DNA of 6,193 nucleotides from a virus (Duplodnaviria; Heunggongvirae; Uroviricota; Caudoviricetes): IMG/VR virus record IMGVR_UViG_2778261502_000008; one strand, given 5' to 3'. Each line of letters opens with the position of its first letter. The first letter of the stretch is position 1. The notes under the pieces are model-generated. The model saw nothing but the letters and a program-made list of their open reading frames with translations, searched no databases and was not told the DNA's origin. Position numbers and translations under genes: made by a program. This document shows, one piece after another, positions 1 through 6,193 of this stretch.

Positions 1-1572
1 GCTGACGTCATATTCCAGACAGCCACGGCGGATAACGTCTTTTGCCTTGAGCACCATTGCGGTTTTCATTTCCGGCGTGTAGCGGATATCGCGAGCGGCG
101 GGATAGAACGAGCGCACGAGCTGGAACACACCGACACCGAGGCCGGTGGCATCAATCCCGATGTATTCGACGTTGTATTTTTCGGTGAGTTTGCGGATGG
201 ATTCTGCCTGGGTGGCAAAGTCCATGCCTTTCCACTGGTGACGCTCAAGGATCCTGAATTTGCCACCGGCCACCACCGGCGGTGCCAGCACCACGCATCC
301 GGCGCTGTCGCCACGGTGTGACGGGTCGTAACCAATCCATACCGGGCGGGAGCCGAACGGATTTGCGGCAAACGGCGCATAGTCTTCCCATTCTTCCAGC
401 GTGTCGACCATACAGCGTTGCAGCTCCTCGAACGGGAACACCGACGCCTTGTCGTCAACAAATTCACACATGAACAGGTTTTTAAAATCATCGGCGCTGT
501 TTTCGCGTTTGAGCTGCTCAATGTCGAACAGCGTGCAGCCGCCTTTCAGGGCGTCCTCAATGGTGACAATCTGCCGCCACTGGCCGTCCGCACAGAGAAG
601 CCCCCCGGCAAGGGCGTTATGACTGACGTCGATTTCCACGCGTTCGGCGGCGCTGGCGCGTCCCCGGTTGAACAGTTCACCCGACCAGAACGGGTAGGCG
701 TCGTGCGCCAGCGTGGACGGGGTGGAGAAATAGGTCGAGCGCAGGTGGCTCTGTGAGGCCATACCTGATGCCACCTTACGCAGCACCTGAAAATTCGGGA
801 TCCAGAAAATCTCATCGACGTACAGGTCGCCGTTATGGCTCTGTGCGGTGTTGGAGTTGGTGCCGAGAAAAATCAGTTTTGCACCGTTATTGCCCAGGAC
901 AATCGGGTCACCGGTCAGGTCAACGTCAACCAGCCGGGCAAAGGCGATGATGTATTCACGGAACACATACGCCTGCGTTTTACTGGCCGACAGAAAAATC
1001 TGGTTATGACCGGTTTTCAGGGCGCGCAGCAGCGCCTCGCGGGAAAAATAAAACGTCGCGCCAATCTGGCGGGATTTCAGAATATCGCGGATGCGGTGCT
1101 CAAGCCCGGCGCGATACCAGTGCAACTGATATTCGAAAGACTGCTCAAAGAAAATCTGCTCCAGCTTTTCGATGGCCTCGTCACTGAAAAAATTCTTTTT
1201 CGGTTTGCGACGCCCGCCTTTGTTGCGGTTAGCGACGTTCGGATTAAGGTCTGCCTCGTTGCCGGTCTGACTGTAACGGTTTACCCGTGCCAGTCGTTCA
1301 ATCTGGCGTCCCAGCAGGTCAATTTCCTTGAAGTCACCGCCGGTTTTCTGCGGTTTGATGATGAGCTGAGTCAGCCGCGCTTCCAGACTCATTTCGACAC
1401 GGCTGATGGGGGCAACGCTGTCCCAGCCGTCGCGCTGTTTCCAGCTCTGCACCGTCGGGCGTTTCATCTGCAACATGGCGGCAATCTGCGGTACGGAAAA
1501 CCCCTGCCAGTACAGCAGCGCCGCCTGACGACGCGGGTCGTGTAAAAGAGTGGTGTCTGTGGTGATGGTCAT
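1..1572 (-). CDS. P: Phage terminase large (ATPase) subunit, P2 gpP-like; N-terminus at 1572, 3' end runs off the window start (partial, 524 codons visible)
   Basis: Hand translation of the minus strand from ATG (reverse complement of 1570-1572) gives an uninterrupted frame to position 1: MTITTDTTLLHDPRRQAALLYWQGFSVPQIAAMLQMKRPTVQSWKQRDGWDSVAPISRVEMSLEARLTQLIIKPQKTGGDFKEIDLLGRQIERLARVNRYSQTGNEADLNPNVANRNKGGRRKPKKNFFSDEAIEKLEQIFFEQSFEYQLHWYRAGLEHRIRDILKSRQIGATFYFSREALLRALKTGHNQIFLSASKTQAYVF... with a Walker-B-like hydrophobic-DE motif (LYVDEIFWI). Shine-Dalgarno GGCGAGG lies 5 nt upstream of the ATG on the minus strand. It is absent from the ORF track, presumably because no stop codon falls inside the window. 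The plus-strand ORFs 418..756 and 835..1545 are shadow frames of this gene. Assignment to gpP is from memory of the P2 family. Confidence 0.88.
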   Translation of the reverse strand, partial: MTITTDTTLLHDPRRQAALLYWQGFSVPQIAAMLQMKRPTVQSWKQRDGWDSVAPISRVEMSLEARLTQLIIKPQKTGGDFKEIDLLGRQIERLARVNRYSQTGNEADLNPNVANRNKGGRRKPKKNFFSDEAIEKLEQIFFEQSFEYQLHWYRAGLEHRIRDILKSRQIGATFYFSREALLRALKTGHNQIFLSASKTQAYVFREYIIAFARLVDVDLTGDPIVLGNNGAKLIFLGTNSNTAQSHNGDLYVDEIFWIPNFQVLRKVASGMASQSHLRSTYFSTPSTLAHDAYPFWSGELFNRGRASAAERVEIDVSHNALAGGLLCADGQWRQIVTIEDALKGGCTLFDIEQLKRENSADDFKNLFMCEFVDDKASVFPFEELQRCMVDTLEEWEDYAPFAANPFGSRPVWIGYDPSHRGDSAGCVVLAPPVVAGGKFRILERHQWKGMDFATQAESIRKLTEKYNVEYIGIDATGLGVGVFQLVRSFYPAARDIRYTPEMKTAMVLKAKDVIRRGCLEYDVS

Positions 1573-1581
1573 GAATACCTC

Positions 1582-1600
1582 GCCGTGATGAATACACGGC
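1582..1600. repeat. Short inverted repeat GCCGTG-N7-CACGGC inside the 34-bp gap between the divergent P and FI starts
   Basis: Read directly: 1582-1587 gccgtg, 7-nt spacer atgaata, 1595-1600 cacggc, which is the exact reverse complement. It sits at or beside the inferred deletion junction. Function unknown. Confidence 0.35.
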
Positions 1601-1606
1601 AAACCG

Positions 1607-2656
1607 GTGCTGATTACCAATGTGCAGAGTGCAATTGCAAAGGCCGGTAAAAAAGGCACGCTGGCGGCATCGTTGCAGGCCATCGCCGACCAGTCAAAAC
1701 CGGTCACCGTTGTCGTGCGCGTGGAAGACGGCACTGGTGATGACGAGGAAACGAAACTCGCGCAGACCGTTTCCAATATCATCGGCACCACCGACGAAAA
1801 CGGTCAGTACACCGGACTAAAAGCCCTGCTGGCGGCGGAGTCGGTAACCGGTGTTAAACCGCGTATTCTCGGTGTGCCGGGACTGGACACCAAAGAGGTG
1901 GCTGTTGCACTGGCATCAGTCTGTCAGAAGCTGCGCGCTTTCGGGTATATCAGCGCATGGGGCTGTAAAACCATTTCCGAGGTGAAAGCCTACCGCCAGA
2001 ATTTCAGCCAGCGTGAGCTGATGGTCATCTGGCCGGATTTCCTCGCATGGGATACGGTCACCAGTACCACCTCCACCGCGTATGCCACCGCCCGTGCGCT
2101 GGGTCTGCGCGCTAAAATCGACCAGGAGCAGGGCTGGCATAAAACGCTGTCCAACGTCGGGGTGAACGGTGTTACCGGCATCAGCGCATCTGTATTCTGG
2201 GATTTGCAGGAGTCCGGCACCGATGCTGACCTGCTGAACGAGGCAGGCGTCACAACGCTGATTCGCCGCGACGGTTTCCGCTTCTGGGGTAACCGTACCT
2301 GCTCTGATGACCCGCTGTTCCTCTTTGAAAACTACACCCGCACCGCGCAGGTGCTGGCCGACACGATGGCTGAGGCGCACATGTGGGCGGTGGACAAGCC
2401 CATCACCGCAACGCTGATTCGCGACATCGTTGACGGCATCAATGCCAAATTCCGTGAGCTGAAAACAAATGGCTATATCGTGGATGCGACCTGCTGGTTC
2501 AGCGAAGAATCCAACGATGCGGAAACCCTCAAGGCCGGAAAACTGTATATCGACTACGACTATACCCCGGTGCCTCCTCTTGAAAACCTGACCCTGCGCC
2601 AGCGTATTACCGATAAATACCTGGCAAATCTGGTCACCTCGGTTAACAGCAATTAA
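1607..2656 (+). CDS. FI: Contractile tail sheath protein, P2 gpFI-like, apparently N-terminally truncated (GTG start, no convincing RBS)
   Basis: 349-aa ORF beginning at GTG 1607, sequence (V/M)[41 protein letters not shown]...[11 protein letters not shown], which I recognise as tail sheath. An in-frame TGA at 1589-1591 sits 18 nt upstream, so the frame cannot extend further. P2 FI is about 396 aa as I recall, and this ORF begins at an internal position of that protein (around residue 45-50). There is no Shine-Dalgarno before 1607. It may be annotated as a CDS or as a pseudogene. Confidence 0.8.
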
Positions 2657-2668
2657 GGAGCCTGACCG

Positions 2669-3187
2669 ATGGCAATGCCGCGCAAACTCAAGTTAATGAA
2701 CGTCTTTCTGAACGGCTACAGCTATCAGGGCGTTGCAAAGTCCGTCACGCTGCCAAAACTGACCCGTAAGCTCGAAAACTATCGCGGTGCGGGGATGAAC
2801 GGCAGCGCACCGGTAGACCTCGGCCTTGATGACGATGCGCTGTCAATGGAGTGGTCGCTCGGTGGCTTCCCGGATTCGGTTATCTGGGAGCTTTACGCCG
2901 CAACCGGTGTGGATGCCGTGCCGATTCGTTTTGCAGGCTCTTACCAGCGCGACGATACCGGCGAAACGGTGGCCGTCGAAGTGGTCATGCGTGGACGTCA
3001 GAAAGAAATCGACACCGGCGAGGGTAAACAGGGAGAAGACACCGAGTCGAAAATCTCCGTGGTCTGCACCTATTTCCGGCTGACGATGGACGGCAAGGAG
3101 CTGGTCGAAATCGACACCATCAACATGATTGAGAAGGTGAACGGCGTCGACCGGCTGGAGCAACACCGCCGAAATATCGGCCTGTGA
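2669..3187 (+). CDS. FII: Tail tube protein, P2 gpFII-like (172 aa), apparently intact
   Basis: ATG at 2669 preceded by AGGAG-type RBS (ggag at 2657-2660) immediately after the FI stop (taa 2654-2656). Protein MAMPRKLKLMNVFLNGYSYQGVAKSVTLPKLTRKLENYRGAGMNGSAPVDLGLDDDALSMEWSLGG... matches my recollection of P2-family major tail tube. The sheath-then-tube order is canonical. Confidence 0.9.
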   Translation: MAMPRKLKLMNVFLNGYSYQGVAKSVTLPKLTRKLENYRGAGMNGSAPVDLGLDDDALSMEWSLGGFPDSVIWELYAATGVDAVPIRFAGSYQRDDTGETVAVEVVMRGRQKEIDTGEGKQGEDTESKISVVCTYFRLTMDGKELVEIDTINMIEKVNGVDRLEQHRRNIGL

Positions 3188-3194
3188 TTTTCAT

Positions 3195-3215
3195 CCGGTC
3201 AGCCTGGCTGACCGG
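3195..3215 (+). other. GC-rich stem-loop (8-bp stem, 5-nt loop) just downstream of the FII stop; no U-tract
   Basis: Read directly: ccggtcag (3195-3202), cctgg (3203-3207), ctgaccgg (3208-3215). It begins 8 nt after the FII stop codon (tga 3185-3187). The following sequence is ttaaccctg, not a T-run, so this is not a canonical intrinsic terminator. It could be an mRNA stability or attenuation element between the abundant tube gene and the downstream genes. Confidence 0.45.
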
Positions 3216-3243
3216 TTAACCCTGATTCAGAAGTGAGAAAACC

Positions 3244-3300
3244 ATGAACAAAGAAAATGTGATTACCCTGGACAAACACAAAAATCACTGCGCGAGCTGA
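3244..3300 (+). pseudogene. E: Remnant of tail assembly chaperone gene E (gpE-like): about 10 native codons, then out-of-frame sequence and a stop after 18 codons
   Basis: ATG at 3244 with upstream purine-rich RBS (aagtgagaaaacc). Translation is MNKENVITLDKHKNHCAS*. MNKENVITLD matches the gpE N-terminus as I recall it; the rest does not look like a chaperone, and the programmed-frameshift E/E' region is absent. Consistent with a deletion breakpoint near 3270-3280. Confidence 0.5.
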
Positions 3301-3353
3301 ACGGTCACGCATCCCGTATTGAGGGATTTCGCAAGACCAGCGCACAGCTCGCC

Positions 3354-4730
3354 GTGACTGGTCATGCACTTGAAAAGGCACGGCAGGAGGCCGAAGCCCT
3401 TGCCACACAGTTTAAAAACACTGAACGTCCGACCCGTGCTCAGGCGAAAGTGCTGGAATCCGCAAAGCGTGCGGCGGAGGACTTACAGGCGAAATATAAC
3501 CGCCTGACAGATTCCGTTAAACGCCAGCAGCGGGAACTGGCCGCTGTGGGAATTAATACCCGCAATCTTGCACATGATGAGCAGGGACTGAAAAACCGTA
3601 TCAGTGAAACCACCGCACAGCTTAACCGTCAGCGTGATGCGCTGGCGCGTGTCAGTGCGCAACAGGCAAAACTTAACGCAGTAAAACAGCGTTATCAGGC
3701 CGGAAAGGAACTGGCCGGAAATATGGCCTCGGTGGGCGCTGCCGGTGTGGGGATTGCGGCGGCGGGAACGATGGCCGGAGTTAAGCTGCTGATGCCCGGT
3801 TATGAGTTTGCGCAGAAAAACTCAGAATTGCAGGCCGTGCTCGGAGTGGCAAAAGACTCCGCCGAAATGACCGCACTACGCAAACAGGCGCGCCAGCTCG
3901 GCGACAATACCGCCGCCTCGGCGGATGATGCGGCCGGTGCACAGATAATCATCGCGAAAGCGGGTGGGGATGTTGATGCCATTCAGGCGGCAACGCCGGT
4001 CACGCTGAATATGGCGCTGGCGAACCGCCGCACGATGGAAGAAAACGCCGCCCTGCTGATGGGGATGAAATCCGCCTTTCAGCTTTCAAACGATAAGGTC
4101 GCTCATATCGGGGATGTTCTCTCCATGACGATGAACAAAACCGCCGCCGATTTTGACGGCATGAGCGATGCGCTGACCTATGCCGCACCTGTGGCAAAAA
4201 ATGCCGGTGTCAGCATTGAAGAAACCGCCGCAATGGTCGGGGCGCTGCATGATGCAAAAATCACAGGCTCAATGGCGGGGACGGGAAGCCGTGCCGTGTT
4301 AAGCCGCCTGCAGGCACCGACGGGAAAAGCATGGGATGCACTCAAAGAGCTTGGCGTGAAAACCTCAGACAGCAAGGGAAACACCCGGCCAATATTTACC
4401 ATTCTGAAAGAAATGCAGGCCAGTTTTGAGAAAAACCGGCTCGGTACTGCCCAGCAGGCTGAATACATGAAAACTATTTTCGGGGAGGAGGCCAGCTCAG
4501 CCGCCGCCGTGCTGATGACTGCCGCCTCAACCGGAAAGCTGGACAAACTGACCGCTGCGTTTAAAGCCTCAGACGGGAAGACCGCCGAGCTGGTAAATAT
4601 CATGCAGGACACCCGCGTTGATGAATCACTGGCCGCGCTTTATGGCGATATCGGTAAACAGGCGGAGTCGCTCATCGGTAAGGCTGGCAGTATGGCGACC
4701 AGATTCACGGGTATGACGGGGGCGGGATAA
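3354..4730 (+). CDS. T: Tail tape measure protein (gpT-like), truncated: lacks a credible start, is about half the expected length, and its C-terminal ~39 aa appear to derive from tail protein gpU (in-frame T'-'U fusion)
   Basis: The track ORF begins at GTG 3354, but the same frame is open back to a TGA at 3234-3236 with no ATG, which suggests a missing N-terminus. The body carries a typical tape-measure core: a Gly/Ala-rich hydrophobic segment (GNMASVGAAGVGIAAAGTMAGVKLL) and a helical Ala/Gln/Lys-rich region. It is 458 aa against roughly 815 aa for P2 gpT (from memory). The ORF ends ...ELVNIMQD | TRVDESLAALYGDIGKQAESLIGKAGSMATRFTGMTGAG*, and its stop overlaps the D start (ataATG) in the way the U/D junction normally does. 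Confidence 0.72.
   Translation: MTGHALEKARQEAEALATQFKNTERPTRAQAKVLESAKRAAEDLQAKYNRLTDSVKRQQRELAAVGINTRNLAHDEQGLKNRISETTAQLNRQRDALARVSAQQAKLNAVKQRYQAGKELAGNMASVGAAGVGIAAAGTMAGVKLLMPGYEFAQKNSELQAVLGVAKDSAEMTALRKQARQLGDNTAASADDAAGAQIIIAKAGGDVDAIQAATPVTLNMALANRRTMEENAALLMGMKSAFQLSNDKVAHIGDVLSMTMNKTAADFDGMSDALTYAAPVAKNAGVSIEETAAMVGALHDAKITGSMAGTGSRAVLSRLQAPTGKAWDALKELGVKTSDSKGNTRPIFTILKEMQASFEKNRLGTAQQAEYMKTIFGEEASSAAAVLMTAASTGKLDKLTAAFKASDGKTAELVNIMQDTRVDESLAALYGDIGKQAESLIGKAGSMATRFTGMTGAG
4611..4730 (+). pseudogene. U: Probable 3'-terminal remnant of tail gene U (gpU-like), fused in frame to the truncated tape measure ORF
   Basis: The last 39 codons of the 3354..4730 ORF (TRVDESLAALYGDIGKQAESLIGKAGSMATRFTGMTGAG) resemble the C-terminus of P2-family gpU as I recall it. 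No separate ~160-aa U ORF exists between T and D. The 4-nt stop/start overlap with D (taATG at 4728-4732) is the expected U-D coupling. Confidence 0.45.
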
Positions 4731-5893
4731 TGCTGGATACGCTGACATTTGATGCAGGCAGTACGCTGACGCCGGATTACATGCTGATGCTCGACAGCAG
4801 GGATATTACCGGCAATATCAGCGACCGTCTGATGAGTATGACCCTGACGGATAACCGGGGCTTTGAGGCTGACCAGCTTGATATTGAACTGAACGATGCC
4901 GACGGGCAGGTCGGGCTGCCGGTTCGTGGCGCTGTCCTGACGGTGTATATCGGCTGGAAAGGTTTTGCCCTGGTATGCAAAGGGAAATTTACCGTTGATG
5001 AGGTTGAACACCGGGGCGCACCGGATGTGGCCACCATCCGCGCCCGGAGTGCAGATTTTCGCGGGACGCTCAATTCCCGCCGGGAAGGCTCCTGGCATGA
5101 CACCACGCTCGGTGCGATTGTTGAGGCGATAGCCACCCGTAACAGGCTGGAAGCCAGTGTCGCTCCGTCACTGGCCGGAATTAAAATCCCGCACATCGAC
5201 CAGTCGCAGGAGTCTGATGCAAAATTCCTGACCCGCCTTGCTGAACGCAACGGCGGTGAGGTGTCGGTAAAAATGGGAAAACTGTTGTTTCTCAAAGCGG
5301 GGCAGGGGGTGACGTCCAGCGGTAAAAAAATCCCGCAGATTACCATCACCCGCAGCGACGGCGACCGTCATCATTTTGCGATTGCTGACCGTGGAGCCTA
5401 TACCGGCGTAACGGCGAAGTGGCTTCACACCAAAGACCCGAAGCCGCAAAAGCAGAAGGTAAAACTGAAACGCAAAAAGAAAGAAAAACACCTGCGCGCA
5501 CTGGAGCACCCGAAAGCGAAACCGGTCACGCAGAAGAAAGCGCCAAAAGTACCGGAAGCGCGCGAAGGTGAATACATGGCCGGTGAGGCTGACAACGTTT
5601 TTGCCCTGACCACGGTATATGCCACGAAAGCACAGGCCATGCGTGCCGCTCAGGCGAAGTGGGATAAACTGCAACGGGGCGTTGCGGAGTTCTCCATCAG
5701 CCTGGCTACCGGTCGTGCAGATATTTACACGGAAACGCCGGTCAAAGTGTCAGGCTTTAAGCGTGTCATAGACGAGCAGGACTGGACAATCACTAAGGTG
5801 ACACATTTTCTGAATAATAGCGGCTTCACGACGTCCTTGGAGCTTGAGGTCAGGCTTTCTGATGTGGAGTACGAAACAGAAGGTAATGAGTGA
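4730..5893 (+). CDS. D: Phage late control gene D protein (gpD-like baseplate hub, gp27/VgrG-like family), 387 aa, apparently intact
   Basis: ATG at 4730 overlapping the upstream stop. 387 aa, the length I recall for P2 gpD. Family-typical motifs are present: MLDTLTFDAG..., GFEADQLDIELNDADGQ, FTVDEVEHRGAPD, SWHDTTLGAIVEAIA, ESDAKFLTRLAE. Position immediately upstream of ogr is canonical. Confidence 0.9.
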   Translation: MLDTLTFDAGSTLTPDYMLMLDSRDITGNISDRLMSMTLTDNRGFEADQLDIELNDADGQVGLPVRGAVLTVYIGWKGFALVCKGKFTVDEVEHRGAPDVATIRARSADFRGTLNSRREGSWHDTTLGAIVEAIATRNRLEASVAPSLAGIKIPHIDQSQESDAKFLTRLAERNGGEVSVKMGKLLFLKAGQGVTSSGKKIPQITITRSDGDRHHFAIADRGAYTGVTAKWLHTKDPKPQKQKVKLKRKKKEKHLRALEHPKAKPVTQKKAPKVPEAREGEYMAGEADNVFALTTVYATKAQAMRAAQAKWDKLQRGVAEFSISLATGRADIYTETPVKVSGFKRVIDEQDWTITKVTHFLNNSGFTTSLELEVRLSDVEYETEGNE

Positions 5894-5911
5894 TGCGTTT
5901 TATTTATCTGT

Positions 5912-5940
5912 TTGTTTTATAAGGACAAATTAACTAAAAT
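5912..5940 (+). promoter_or_regulatory. Candidate sigma70 promoter for ogr: TTGTTT (-35), 17-bp spacer, TAAAAT (-10)
   Basis: Read directly: ttgttt at 5912-5917, 17-nt spacer 5918-5934, taaaat at 5935-5940, in the AT-rich D-ogr intergenic region. Predicted start near 5947-5949. A purine-rich SD (ggaagagg, 5959-5966) precedes ATG 5975. Confidence 0.5.
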
Positions 5941-5974
5941 GACACCATTAACAAAACCGGAAGAGGTGCTCGCG

Positions 5975-6193
5975 ATGTTTCATTGTCCTTTATGCCAGCA
6001 TGCCGCACATGCGCGTACAAGCCGCTATATCACTGACACGACAAAAGAGCGTTATCACCAGTGTCAGAACGTGAATTGCAGCGCCACGTTCATCACCTAT
6101 GAGTCGGTACAGAGATACATCGTGAAGCCGGGAGAAGTCCACGCCGTAAGGCCGCACCCGTTGCCGTCAGGGCAGCAAATTATGTGGATGTGA
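5975..6193 (+). CDS. ogr: Ogr-family zinc-finger late transcription activator (P2 Ogr / E. coli OgrK-like), 72 aa
   Basis: ATG at 5975 to TGA 6191-6193. Protein MFHCPLCQHAAHARTSRYITDTTKERYHQCQNVNCSATFITYESVQRYIVKPGEVHAVRPHPLPSGQQIMWM has the C-x2-C...C-x4-C zinc-finger arrangement and matches Ogr as I recall it. The track ORF from 5912 is a TTG-initiated upstream extension that overlaps the predicted promoter and is unlikely to be real. Confidence 0.9.
   Translation: MFHCPLCQHAAHARTSRYITDTTKERYHQCQNVNCSATFITYESVQRYIVKPGEVHAVRPHPLPSGQQIMWM

Follow-up and report, generated by a model that had tools for sequence, protein, structure and literature searches.

The tape-measure protein gpT of phage P2 comprises 815 amino acids (aa) when intact, and the essential tail protein gpU (159 aa; Pfam family Phage_P2_GpU) is a homologue of the R-pyocin 'Ripcord' protein PA0626 (PDB 6u5b). 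Remnants of P2 are common, with about 600 of 2,175 matching records lacking the full segment from FI to ogr, and one such remnant is yegZ/ogrK of E. coli K-12. According to the gyrase subunit-exchange model of illegitimate recombination, reportedly put forward by Ikeda and co-workers, deletion junctions should display a stagger of 4 nucleotides (nt). E. coli also performs a RecBCD-dependent end joining that uses microhomologies of 1–3 nt (bioRxiv 10.1101/605246), and phage Mu carries a strong gyrase site (SGS) at which the scissile bonds have been resolved by electron cryo-microscopy (PMC11626157). Here we analyze a stretch of 6,193 nt from the virus record IMGVR_UViG_2778261502_000008, referred to in its whole length as the window, which is an attR-proximal remnant of a P2-like prophage in which the tape-measure gene T has been joined in frame to the end of gene U. 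The resulting fusion open reading frame (ORF) is in itself ordinary, and it is the breakpoint that could matter: the position in U at which the deletion ends is a nucleotide-precise deletion hot spot, and no fewer than 14 further deletions, independent in origin, end there in other P2-like prophages.

The window corresponds to positions 3–6195 of contig NLUV01000023.1 in the E. coli draft assembly GCA_002233275.1, which continues beyond the window into fieF, pfkA and sbp. It is colinear with phage P2 at 96.6–98.1% identity, and positions 1601–6193 are 100% identical to the intact P2-like prophage of E. coli ATCC 8739 (CP043852), which is inserted at the identical chromosomal site next to fieF and is taken here as the intact parent. 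Relative to this parent, the window has suffered three illegitimate (non-homologous) deletions, of 13.4 kb, 499 bp and 1,376 bp, each with an overlap of only 2 bp at the junction (junctions A, B and C; Table 1). The order of the remaining genes on the plus strand is a 5'-truncated FI, an intact FII, a stub of E, a truncated T fused to the end of U, an intact D and an intact ogr.

The fusion was first recognized from the sequence alone, in a first-pass annotation that described a half-length tape measure joined to the tail of gpU by an in-frame deletion. Comparison with the parent bears this out. Residues 2–419 of the 458-aa ORF are identical to gpT residues 65–482 of the ATCC 8739 prophage and residues 420–458 to gpU residues 121–159, so that with its first codon the ORF spans gpT 64–482 and gpU 121–159; compared to phage P2 itself, 415 of 418 residues match in the T part and 39 of 39 in the U part. 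The predicted breakpoint between IMQD and TRVDESL at about 4610/4611 is exact: BLAST alignment to the parent places it at 4610/4611, where the window reads CAGGACA/CCCGCG (a slash within a sequence marks the breakpoint or the cut). The parental sequences are ...CAGGACAACCTGG on the left and ...CGCTCACCCGCG on the right, with only CA (2 bp) common to both, and the 1,376 bp between T nt 1447 and U nt 360 are missing. The C-terminal 333 residues of gpT and the first 120 residues of gpU have thereby been lost, and no further U sequence is found within the window. The T and U frames remain joined because 1376 mod 3 = 2, which compensates for the +2 offset between the two frames. As had also been noted, the stop codon of the fusion (TAA, 4728–4730) overlaps the start codon of D (ATG, 4730–4732) in the sequence ATAATG, just as at the native U/D junction of the parent and of P2. 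It had been asked whether the 39-aa tail might be native to tape measures; a search with a 99-aa peptide spanning the junction among 5.8 billion proteins identified no tape measure that ends in this way.

The same search did identify 12 other short proteins joined at Thr121 of gpU (.../TRVDESLAALYGDIG). Their N-terminal partners are FI at five positions, FII, gpR, gpT at residue 34 and four sequences unrelated to P2. Including the window, 13 in-frame fusions are joined at Thr121, as compared to about a dozen more that end at scattered positions further upstream in U. The DNA was retrieved for eight of the hot-spot fusions and mapped onto the intact reference prophage. Nine right-end events are verified at the DNA level (the window, L008, L011, L013, L015, L017, L018, L020 and L044), from prophages at two attachment sites (fieF and yegQ), with differing cargo and differing left breakpoints, all of which resume at the same U nucleotide. 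The left breakpoints are located at T nt 103 (L008), R nt 246 (L011), FII nt 214 (L013), FI nt 243 (L015) and FI nt 826 (L017), in intergenic DNA upstream of Q (L018) and in AT-rich cargo (L020). Two events come from closed genomes that were not selected by way of a U-tail protein. In TUM12357, an out-of-frame deletion joins T nt 828 to U nt 360, and in LR-28 (L021) the hot spot serves as the left end of a deletion and is joined to D nt 690, the only left-end event observed (n = 1). All right-end events fit a retained fragment that starts with ACCCGCG, with a terminal microhomology of 1 nt (A) or 3 nt (ACC). Thus, the U site GCTC/ACCCGCG is the fixed end of deletions that arose independently, and prophages with different sites and cargo have lost DNA up to the same phosphodiester in U.

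The hot-spot events are rare per genome, yet clustered. Among complete genomes, 10 of 1,587 records were truncated within a 140-nt interval around the U hot spot and 8 of 1,592 within D nt 577–716, as compared to 0 of 1,588 in a control interval at D nt 279–418. In IMG/VR, all 21 of 21 matches to the hot-spot junction were synonymous Leu120 variants of intact U. In many of the prophages, between three and six deletions have occurred separately (L013, L015, L020, L021, L045, L046 and the window), and such "Swiss cheese" prophages with multiple internal deletions, of which up to five were seen, also include L047, L048 and L049. Breakpoints recur elsewhere as well, at P nt 281/282, P nt ~1432, FI nt 378–382, FI nt 810–826 and possibly D nt 672–700, and some of these are the left end in one prophage and the right end in another, unrelated one. 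The shared endpoint in U suggests that the decay of these prophages is channelled by a sequence-specific break rather than by random events. We found no description of a P2 deletion hot spot in the available literature; the recurrent U breakpoint adds a further case to a known kind of event, illegitimate recombination at a site of preferential cleavage. As a separate observation on L017, L011 and P0037, FI codons 17–19 (Thr-Arg-Val) repeat the TRV of gpU residues 121–123, and the fusion P0037 joins exactly there; in this single case, a longer direct repeat may have been the driving factor, and not the hot spot on its own.

To the right of the hot spot, window positions 4612–4663 (L002 16886–16937) show 90–96% identity between P2-like lineages, whereas the U and D flanks of this segment of about 50 nt show 60–90%, with 66–70% in the adjacent 50-nt bins. 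The segment encodes TRVDESLAALYGDIGKQ, and its synonymous sites are conserved too. Neither an RNA structure nor a promoter was found in the segment that accounts for the conservation.

What might cut at the U site was considered from the sequences of the break ends, using a table of 30 ends from 18 junctions in 12 prophages, which represent 16 distinct events. Retained ends of the form ...GGT-3' or 5'-ACC make up 13 of the 30, against a rough, hand-estimated background of ~5%. Ends resembling GGTNACC were also in excess, with 3 of 30 perfect (background 0.15%) and 5 of 30 with one mismatch (background 3%). The enrichment for GGT/ACC resembles, at the level of sequence, the centre of the gyrase consensus obtained by Topo-Seq, GGTAT/NNNN/ATACC (PMC6379681 supplement). 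Cleavage by type IIA topoisomerases is determined by -4G/+8C, -2A/+6T and -1T/+5A (PMC10117906); the right end at the U site has +5A and +8C, and in a hand count G occupied position -4 in 7 of the 8 left ends that are partnered with U and were mapped to the reference. The closest parallel is with the Mu SGS, for which the scissile bonds 5'-T/GATTT-3' and A/A (PMC11626157) place the cut at ...TGTGCGGGT/GATT/TTATGCC. On the bottom strand, the sequence of the U hot spot is ...CAACGCGGGT/GAGC, and the two sites have in common the 8-mer GCGGGTGA (GCGGGT/GA); within it, the phosphodiester at which the U deletions recur is the one that is scissile in the Mu SGS.

From these resemblances we tentatively propose, as the leading mechanism, that the fixed end of the hot spot is a cleavage site of DNA gyrase, a type IIA topoisomerase, which we consider a real possibility while rating it short of probable. 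In such a mechanism, gyrase would make the break at the U site; the 3'-OH strand that it leaves (...GCGGGT-3') would survive intact, the protein-linked 4-nt 5' overhang would be trimmed off, and the end would then be ligated to a resected, variable upstream end by RecBCD- and ligase-dependent joining, using 1–3 nt of microhomology (A or ACC). The junctions themselves are like those of alternative end joining in E. coli, which also produces kilobase deletions with 1–5 nt of junction microhomology. The overlaps are mostly 1–5 nt, with a few in short imperfect repeats of up to ~17 bp, and the deletions range from ~0.4 to 21 kb, in accordance with the 1–9 nt of microhomology and the end resection that are expected of end joining. 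The junctions are unlike the products predicted by simple subunit exchange, as they lack the 4-nt stagger. A broader version of the proposal, that U of P2-like phages holds a conserved strong gyrase site with a core like that of the Mu SGS and that this site is the main source of the "Swiss-cheese" deletions, we regard as rather doubtful. The conserved 50 nt beside the hot spot could be a gyrase-wrapped arm, and the site might serve the phage as the SGS serves Mu. If the U site is indeed cut by gyrase, the erosion of E. coli prophages would be tied to gyrase action, a link to fluoroquinolone exposure would be possible, and the site would offer a natural substrate of defined sequence on which to study, in vivo, end joining and the illegitimate recombination that gyrase initiates.

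Several observations weigh against a gyrase site. The cleavage determinants are matched by the right half of the U site only. The arms of the U site are identical to those of the Mu SGS at just 39 of 115 nt. The octamer TCACCCGC/GCGGGTGA is present in five copies in the reference prophage, where about one is expected, and the other copies are not hot; the copy of TCACCCGC in D (nt 617; window 5346–5353; Ile-Thr-Arg codons) has no cluster of fusion proteins, and its candidacy as an equally hot site was rejected at the protein level. By a crude match to the 133-bp Topo-Seq consensus, the U site scores about average, at the ~50th percentile in the Mu register; the Mu SGS itself reaches only +1.3 to +1.9 standard deviations by this measure.

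The strongest competing explanation is that the hot spot has another cause, again followed by end joining: a site-specific nuclease or restriction enzyme recognizing GGTNACC-type sites (Eco91I/EcoO65I), stalling of RecBCD at a Chi-like sequence, or a phage enzyme. We consider this possible, although on the unlikely side. A nuclease would account for the excess of GGTNACC-like break ends, and some GGTNACC sites in FI are the left end in one prophage and the right end in another. However, the hottest site, GCTCACC, is not a perfect GGTNACC, and no junction joins two GGTNACC sites with the site regenerated. As for RecBCD, GCGGGTGA matches Chi at 6 of 8 positions, and canonical Chi (GCTGGTGG) is absent from both strands of the 32.7-kb reference prophage (CP043852 3843900–3876600; L002/L004), so that RecBCD would be expected to degrade far. 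Chi-like octamers are nevertheless not enriched at the break ends, with 3 of 30 matching at 6 or more of 8 positions against a background of 8%. The similarity of the U site to the P2 cos site, attP and the gpA nick site does not exceed that of shuffled controls. Restriction by EcoP1I (AGACC) or EcoP15I (CAGCAG) was also considered; their sites are out of line with the breakpoints, and a spacing of 25–27 bp was found as one chance match only. Three more candidates were rejected. DNA or RNA secondary structure at the hot spot gave z-scores between +1.4 and 0, with no more than a weak inverted repeat of 10 nt; RNA- or reverse-transcriptase-mediated deletion does not serve as a general mechanism, since several junctions join opposite coding strands or intergenic DNA; and serine-invertase pseudo-sites would cross over after AACC and not before ACC, in addition to which several affected prophages have no invertase.

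A less probable alternative explains the clustering at U codon 121 by selection, acting on the U tail or on expression of D, and not by a mutational hot spot. It would be consistent with the unusual conservation of the ~50 nt to the right of the breakpoint across lineages, with the fact that every hot-spot deletion leaves D and ogr intact, and with the restriction of the protein search to in-frame fusions that keep the tail. Selection, however, predicts a boundary and not the single-nucleotide peak that was observed at Thr121; the out-of-frame event in TUM12357 and the left-end event in LR-28 use the same nucleotide, and other deletions do extend into D or ogr. For these reasons we rate selection as unlikely.

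What the fusion ORF retains of its two parents was analyzed with Pfam. PhageMin_Tail (PF10145) is matched at residues 176–377 (E = 7.4e-46), whereas Phage_P2_GpU (PF06995) has no match on the ORF, because the GpU domain covers residues 6–125 of intact gpU and only five of its residues remain. On sequence grounds, the predicted product is a truncated member of the tape-measure family with a gpU tail that contains no domain. Unlike the full-length tape measure, whose length determines that of the tail, it has neither residues 1–63 nor residues 483–815 of gpT, and it lacks the C-terminal half together with the hydrophobic segment. The first-pass annotation had assumed that the hydrophobic tape-measure core was kept. 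This proved incorrect, as the only strongly hydrophobic stretch of gpT, with a Kyte-Doolittle 19-mer maximum of 2.36 at residues ~535–612, is situated in the deleted part, and the retained part peaks at 1.52.

The two upstream deletions, neither of which the first-pass annotation had mentioned, have in addition removed the signals by which T is expressed. Junction B, from E codon 11 to T codon 37, eliminates almost all of E/E' including the -1 frameshift site, as well as the ribosome-binding site, start codon and codons 1–36 of T, which is why the 458-aa ORF begins at an internal GTG at position 3354 (Val64). No ATG, GTG or TTG precedes this codon in the T frame, and no Shine-Dalgarno sequence was found before it. 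Junction A joins DNA 30 bp upstream of P, which is encoded on the opposite strand, to FI codon 46, with the loss of O, N, M, L, the lysis genes, R, S, the baseplate and fibre genes (O to G), the invertase region, the promoter pF and FI codons 1–45. Homology to the parent stops 30 bp upstream of P; by the P2 annotation, in which P starts at 2993, pP transcription starts at 3016 and the activator site lies at 3057–3087, the activator site shared by pP and pO is within the deleted DNA, and so is pF. The promoter pV is presumably inside the deleted O-to-G segment, as judged from the P2 map, and with this placement the deletions together remove all four late promoters. No convincing internal promoter for D or for the fusion was found; the sole plus-strand match in 3100–4900 is located at 4704–4731, at the end of the ORF. 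With the promoters, E/E' and the T start and ribosome-binding site deleted, the fused frame is left without its native route of transcription or translation.

We therefore turn to the two readings that the first-pass annotation had offered, pure decay or a chimeric protein, of which the evidence favours the former. The 458-aa ORF is very probably a non-functional scar of prophage decay. It calls for annotation as a pseudogene remnant, and neither "short tape measure" nor "candidate defence protein" would be a fitting label. That the junction is in frame has a prior of one in three, and the neighbouring deletion between E and T is out of frame. One in-frame and one out-of-frame intragenic junction are what is expected by chance. 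The alternative, that the fusion is expressed as a chimera that hinders superinfecting P2-like phages in assembling their tails, or that is of some other benefit to the host, appears very improbable. The frame is open over 458 codons, PhageMin_Tail is kept, and the native stop-start overlap is followed by intact D and ogr, so that ribosomes might conceivably translate the U tail to some extent; transcripts reading in from beyond the contig, and initiation at GTG 3354, are also conceivable. These points count in favour of a product and against a mere scar. They are set against the absence of promoter, ribosome-binding site and native start, the deletion of the E/E' chaperones that tape measures need, the loss of both the hydrophobic segment and the GpU domain, the restriction of the junction to one genome, and the lack of any substitution since the deletion that could signal selection. 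The interference idea has no support from these data, and our argument here rests on the absent expression signals.

The identity of the remaining DNA to the intact prophage also informs on age. The 4.6-kb FI-ogr segment has 0 mismatches to the ATCC 8739 prophage, and the deletions must consequently be recent, leaving too little time for selection to show. In comparison, the P segment (window 1–1602) has 18 evenly spread differences (1.1%), and the host flank (L005 6196–14732) is ~1% diverged; the picture is that of a mosaic phage, or of a recent spread of the right half (FI to ogr). Junction C was spanned by a 200-nt probe in 0 of 5,426 complete E. coli genomes, and its 26-mer had no match in the representative genomes of GTDB, in IMG/VR or in the metagenome contigs of JGI; junction A was likewise absent from the 5,426 complete genomes. 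The exact fusion protein is recorded from a single NCBI contig and a single Logan contig (SRR3957146), and both may derive from one isolate. That the junctions are assembly artefacts, with chimeric contigs produced from a genome that carries an intact P2-like prophage, is hardly credible: the assembly is a draft whose contig begins inside P, and the Logan contig breaks inside FI and D, as would fit a second related prophage tangling the assembly graph, but junctions B and C are identical in the NCBI and Logan assemblies (though possibly from the same reads), De Bruijn misjoins require shared k-mers and not 2-bp overlaps, and junctions of this kind, at that very U nucleotide, are also found in closed complete genomes such as TUM12357 and LR-28.

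Like the yegZ/ogrK remnant of K-12, the window is an attR-proximal P2 remnant that keeps D and ogr after internal deletions. In contrast to the K-12 remnant, which keeps only ~510 bp, it keeps FII, D, ogr and part of P at 99–100% identity to live phage, and it looks far younger. The features of the window are summarized in Table 1.

Table 1. Genes, gene fragments and deletion junctions of the 6,193-nt window, as compared to the intact prophage of E. coli ATCC 8739 (the parent).
Feature	Position	Strand	Basis or remark
P, terminase ATPase subunit, 5' part, 524 codons from start	1..1572	-	98.9% identity to ATCC 8739 P; runs off left window end
Last 30 bp upstream of P	1573..1602		pP transcription start kept; -10/-35 and shared pP/pO activator site lost
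Junction A: 13.4-kb deletion, upstream of P to FI codon 46; overlap AA	1600-1602		Parent comparison
FI, tail sheath, without codons 1-45 and promoter	1603..2656	+	100% identical to ATCC 8739 from FI nt 136
FII, tail tube, intact, 172 aa	2669..3187	+	Pfam Phage_tube E = 2.3e-60; 100% identical to parent
E remnant: first 32 nt of E, then out-of-frame T; 18-aa ORF MNKENVITLDKHKNHCAS, then stop	3244..3300	+	Parent comparison
Junction B: 499-bp out-of-frame deletion, E nt 33 to T nt 109; overlap AA	3274..3275		Joins E nt 32 to T nt 110
T, tape measure, codons 37-482 only, with PhageMin_Tail	3276..4611	+	First possible in-frame start GTG 3354 (Val64)
Fusion ORF, 458 aa, T64-482 and U121-159	3354..4730	+	GTG start; ORF list
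Junction C: 1,376-bp deletion, T nt 1448 to U nt 359; shared CA	4610..4611		Right end is the recurrent hot spot GCTC/ACCCGCG
U 3' end, codons 121-159, outside GpU domain	4612..4730	+	Parent and P2 comparison
D, baseplate hub, intact, 387 aa	4730..5893	+	Pfam Phage_GPD; 100% identical to parent; 379/387 vs P2 gpD
ogr, late-gene activator, intact, 72 aa	5975..6193	+	Own promoter region kept

No known RNA families were identified in the window. The P segment is open on the minus strand with zero stops, and is annotated as a 525-aa terminase gene on NLUV01000023.1. The truncated FI is read as an ORF of 349 aa (1607–2656) with matches to Pfam Phage_sheath_1 and Phage_sheath_1C. At the right end, a 93-aa ORF with a TTG start listed at 5912–6193 represents ogr, incorrectly extended on its upstream side; the gene proper is located at 5975–6193. 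Finally, the cargo slots of several of the related prophages (L003, L009, L015, L017, L018, L021 and L046) carry defence-type genes, examples of which are a retron of the Ec48 family, other reverse transcriptases, DarT with a macro-domain protein, SIR2 with an ATPase, Mrr_cat and AAA_13.

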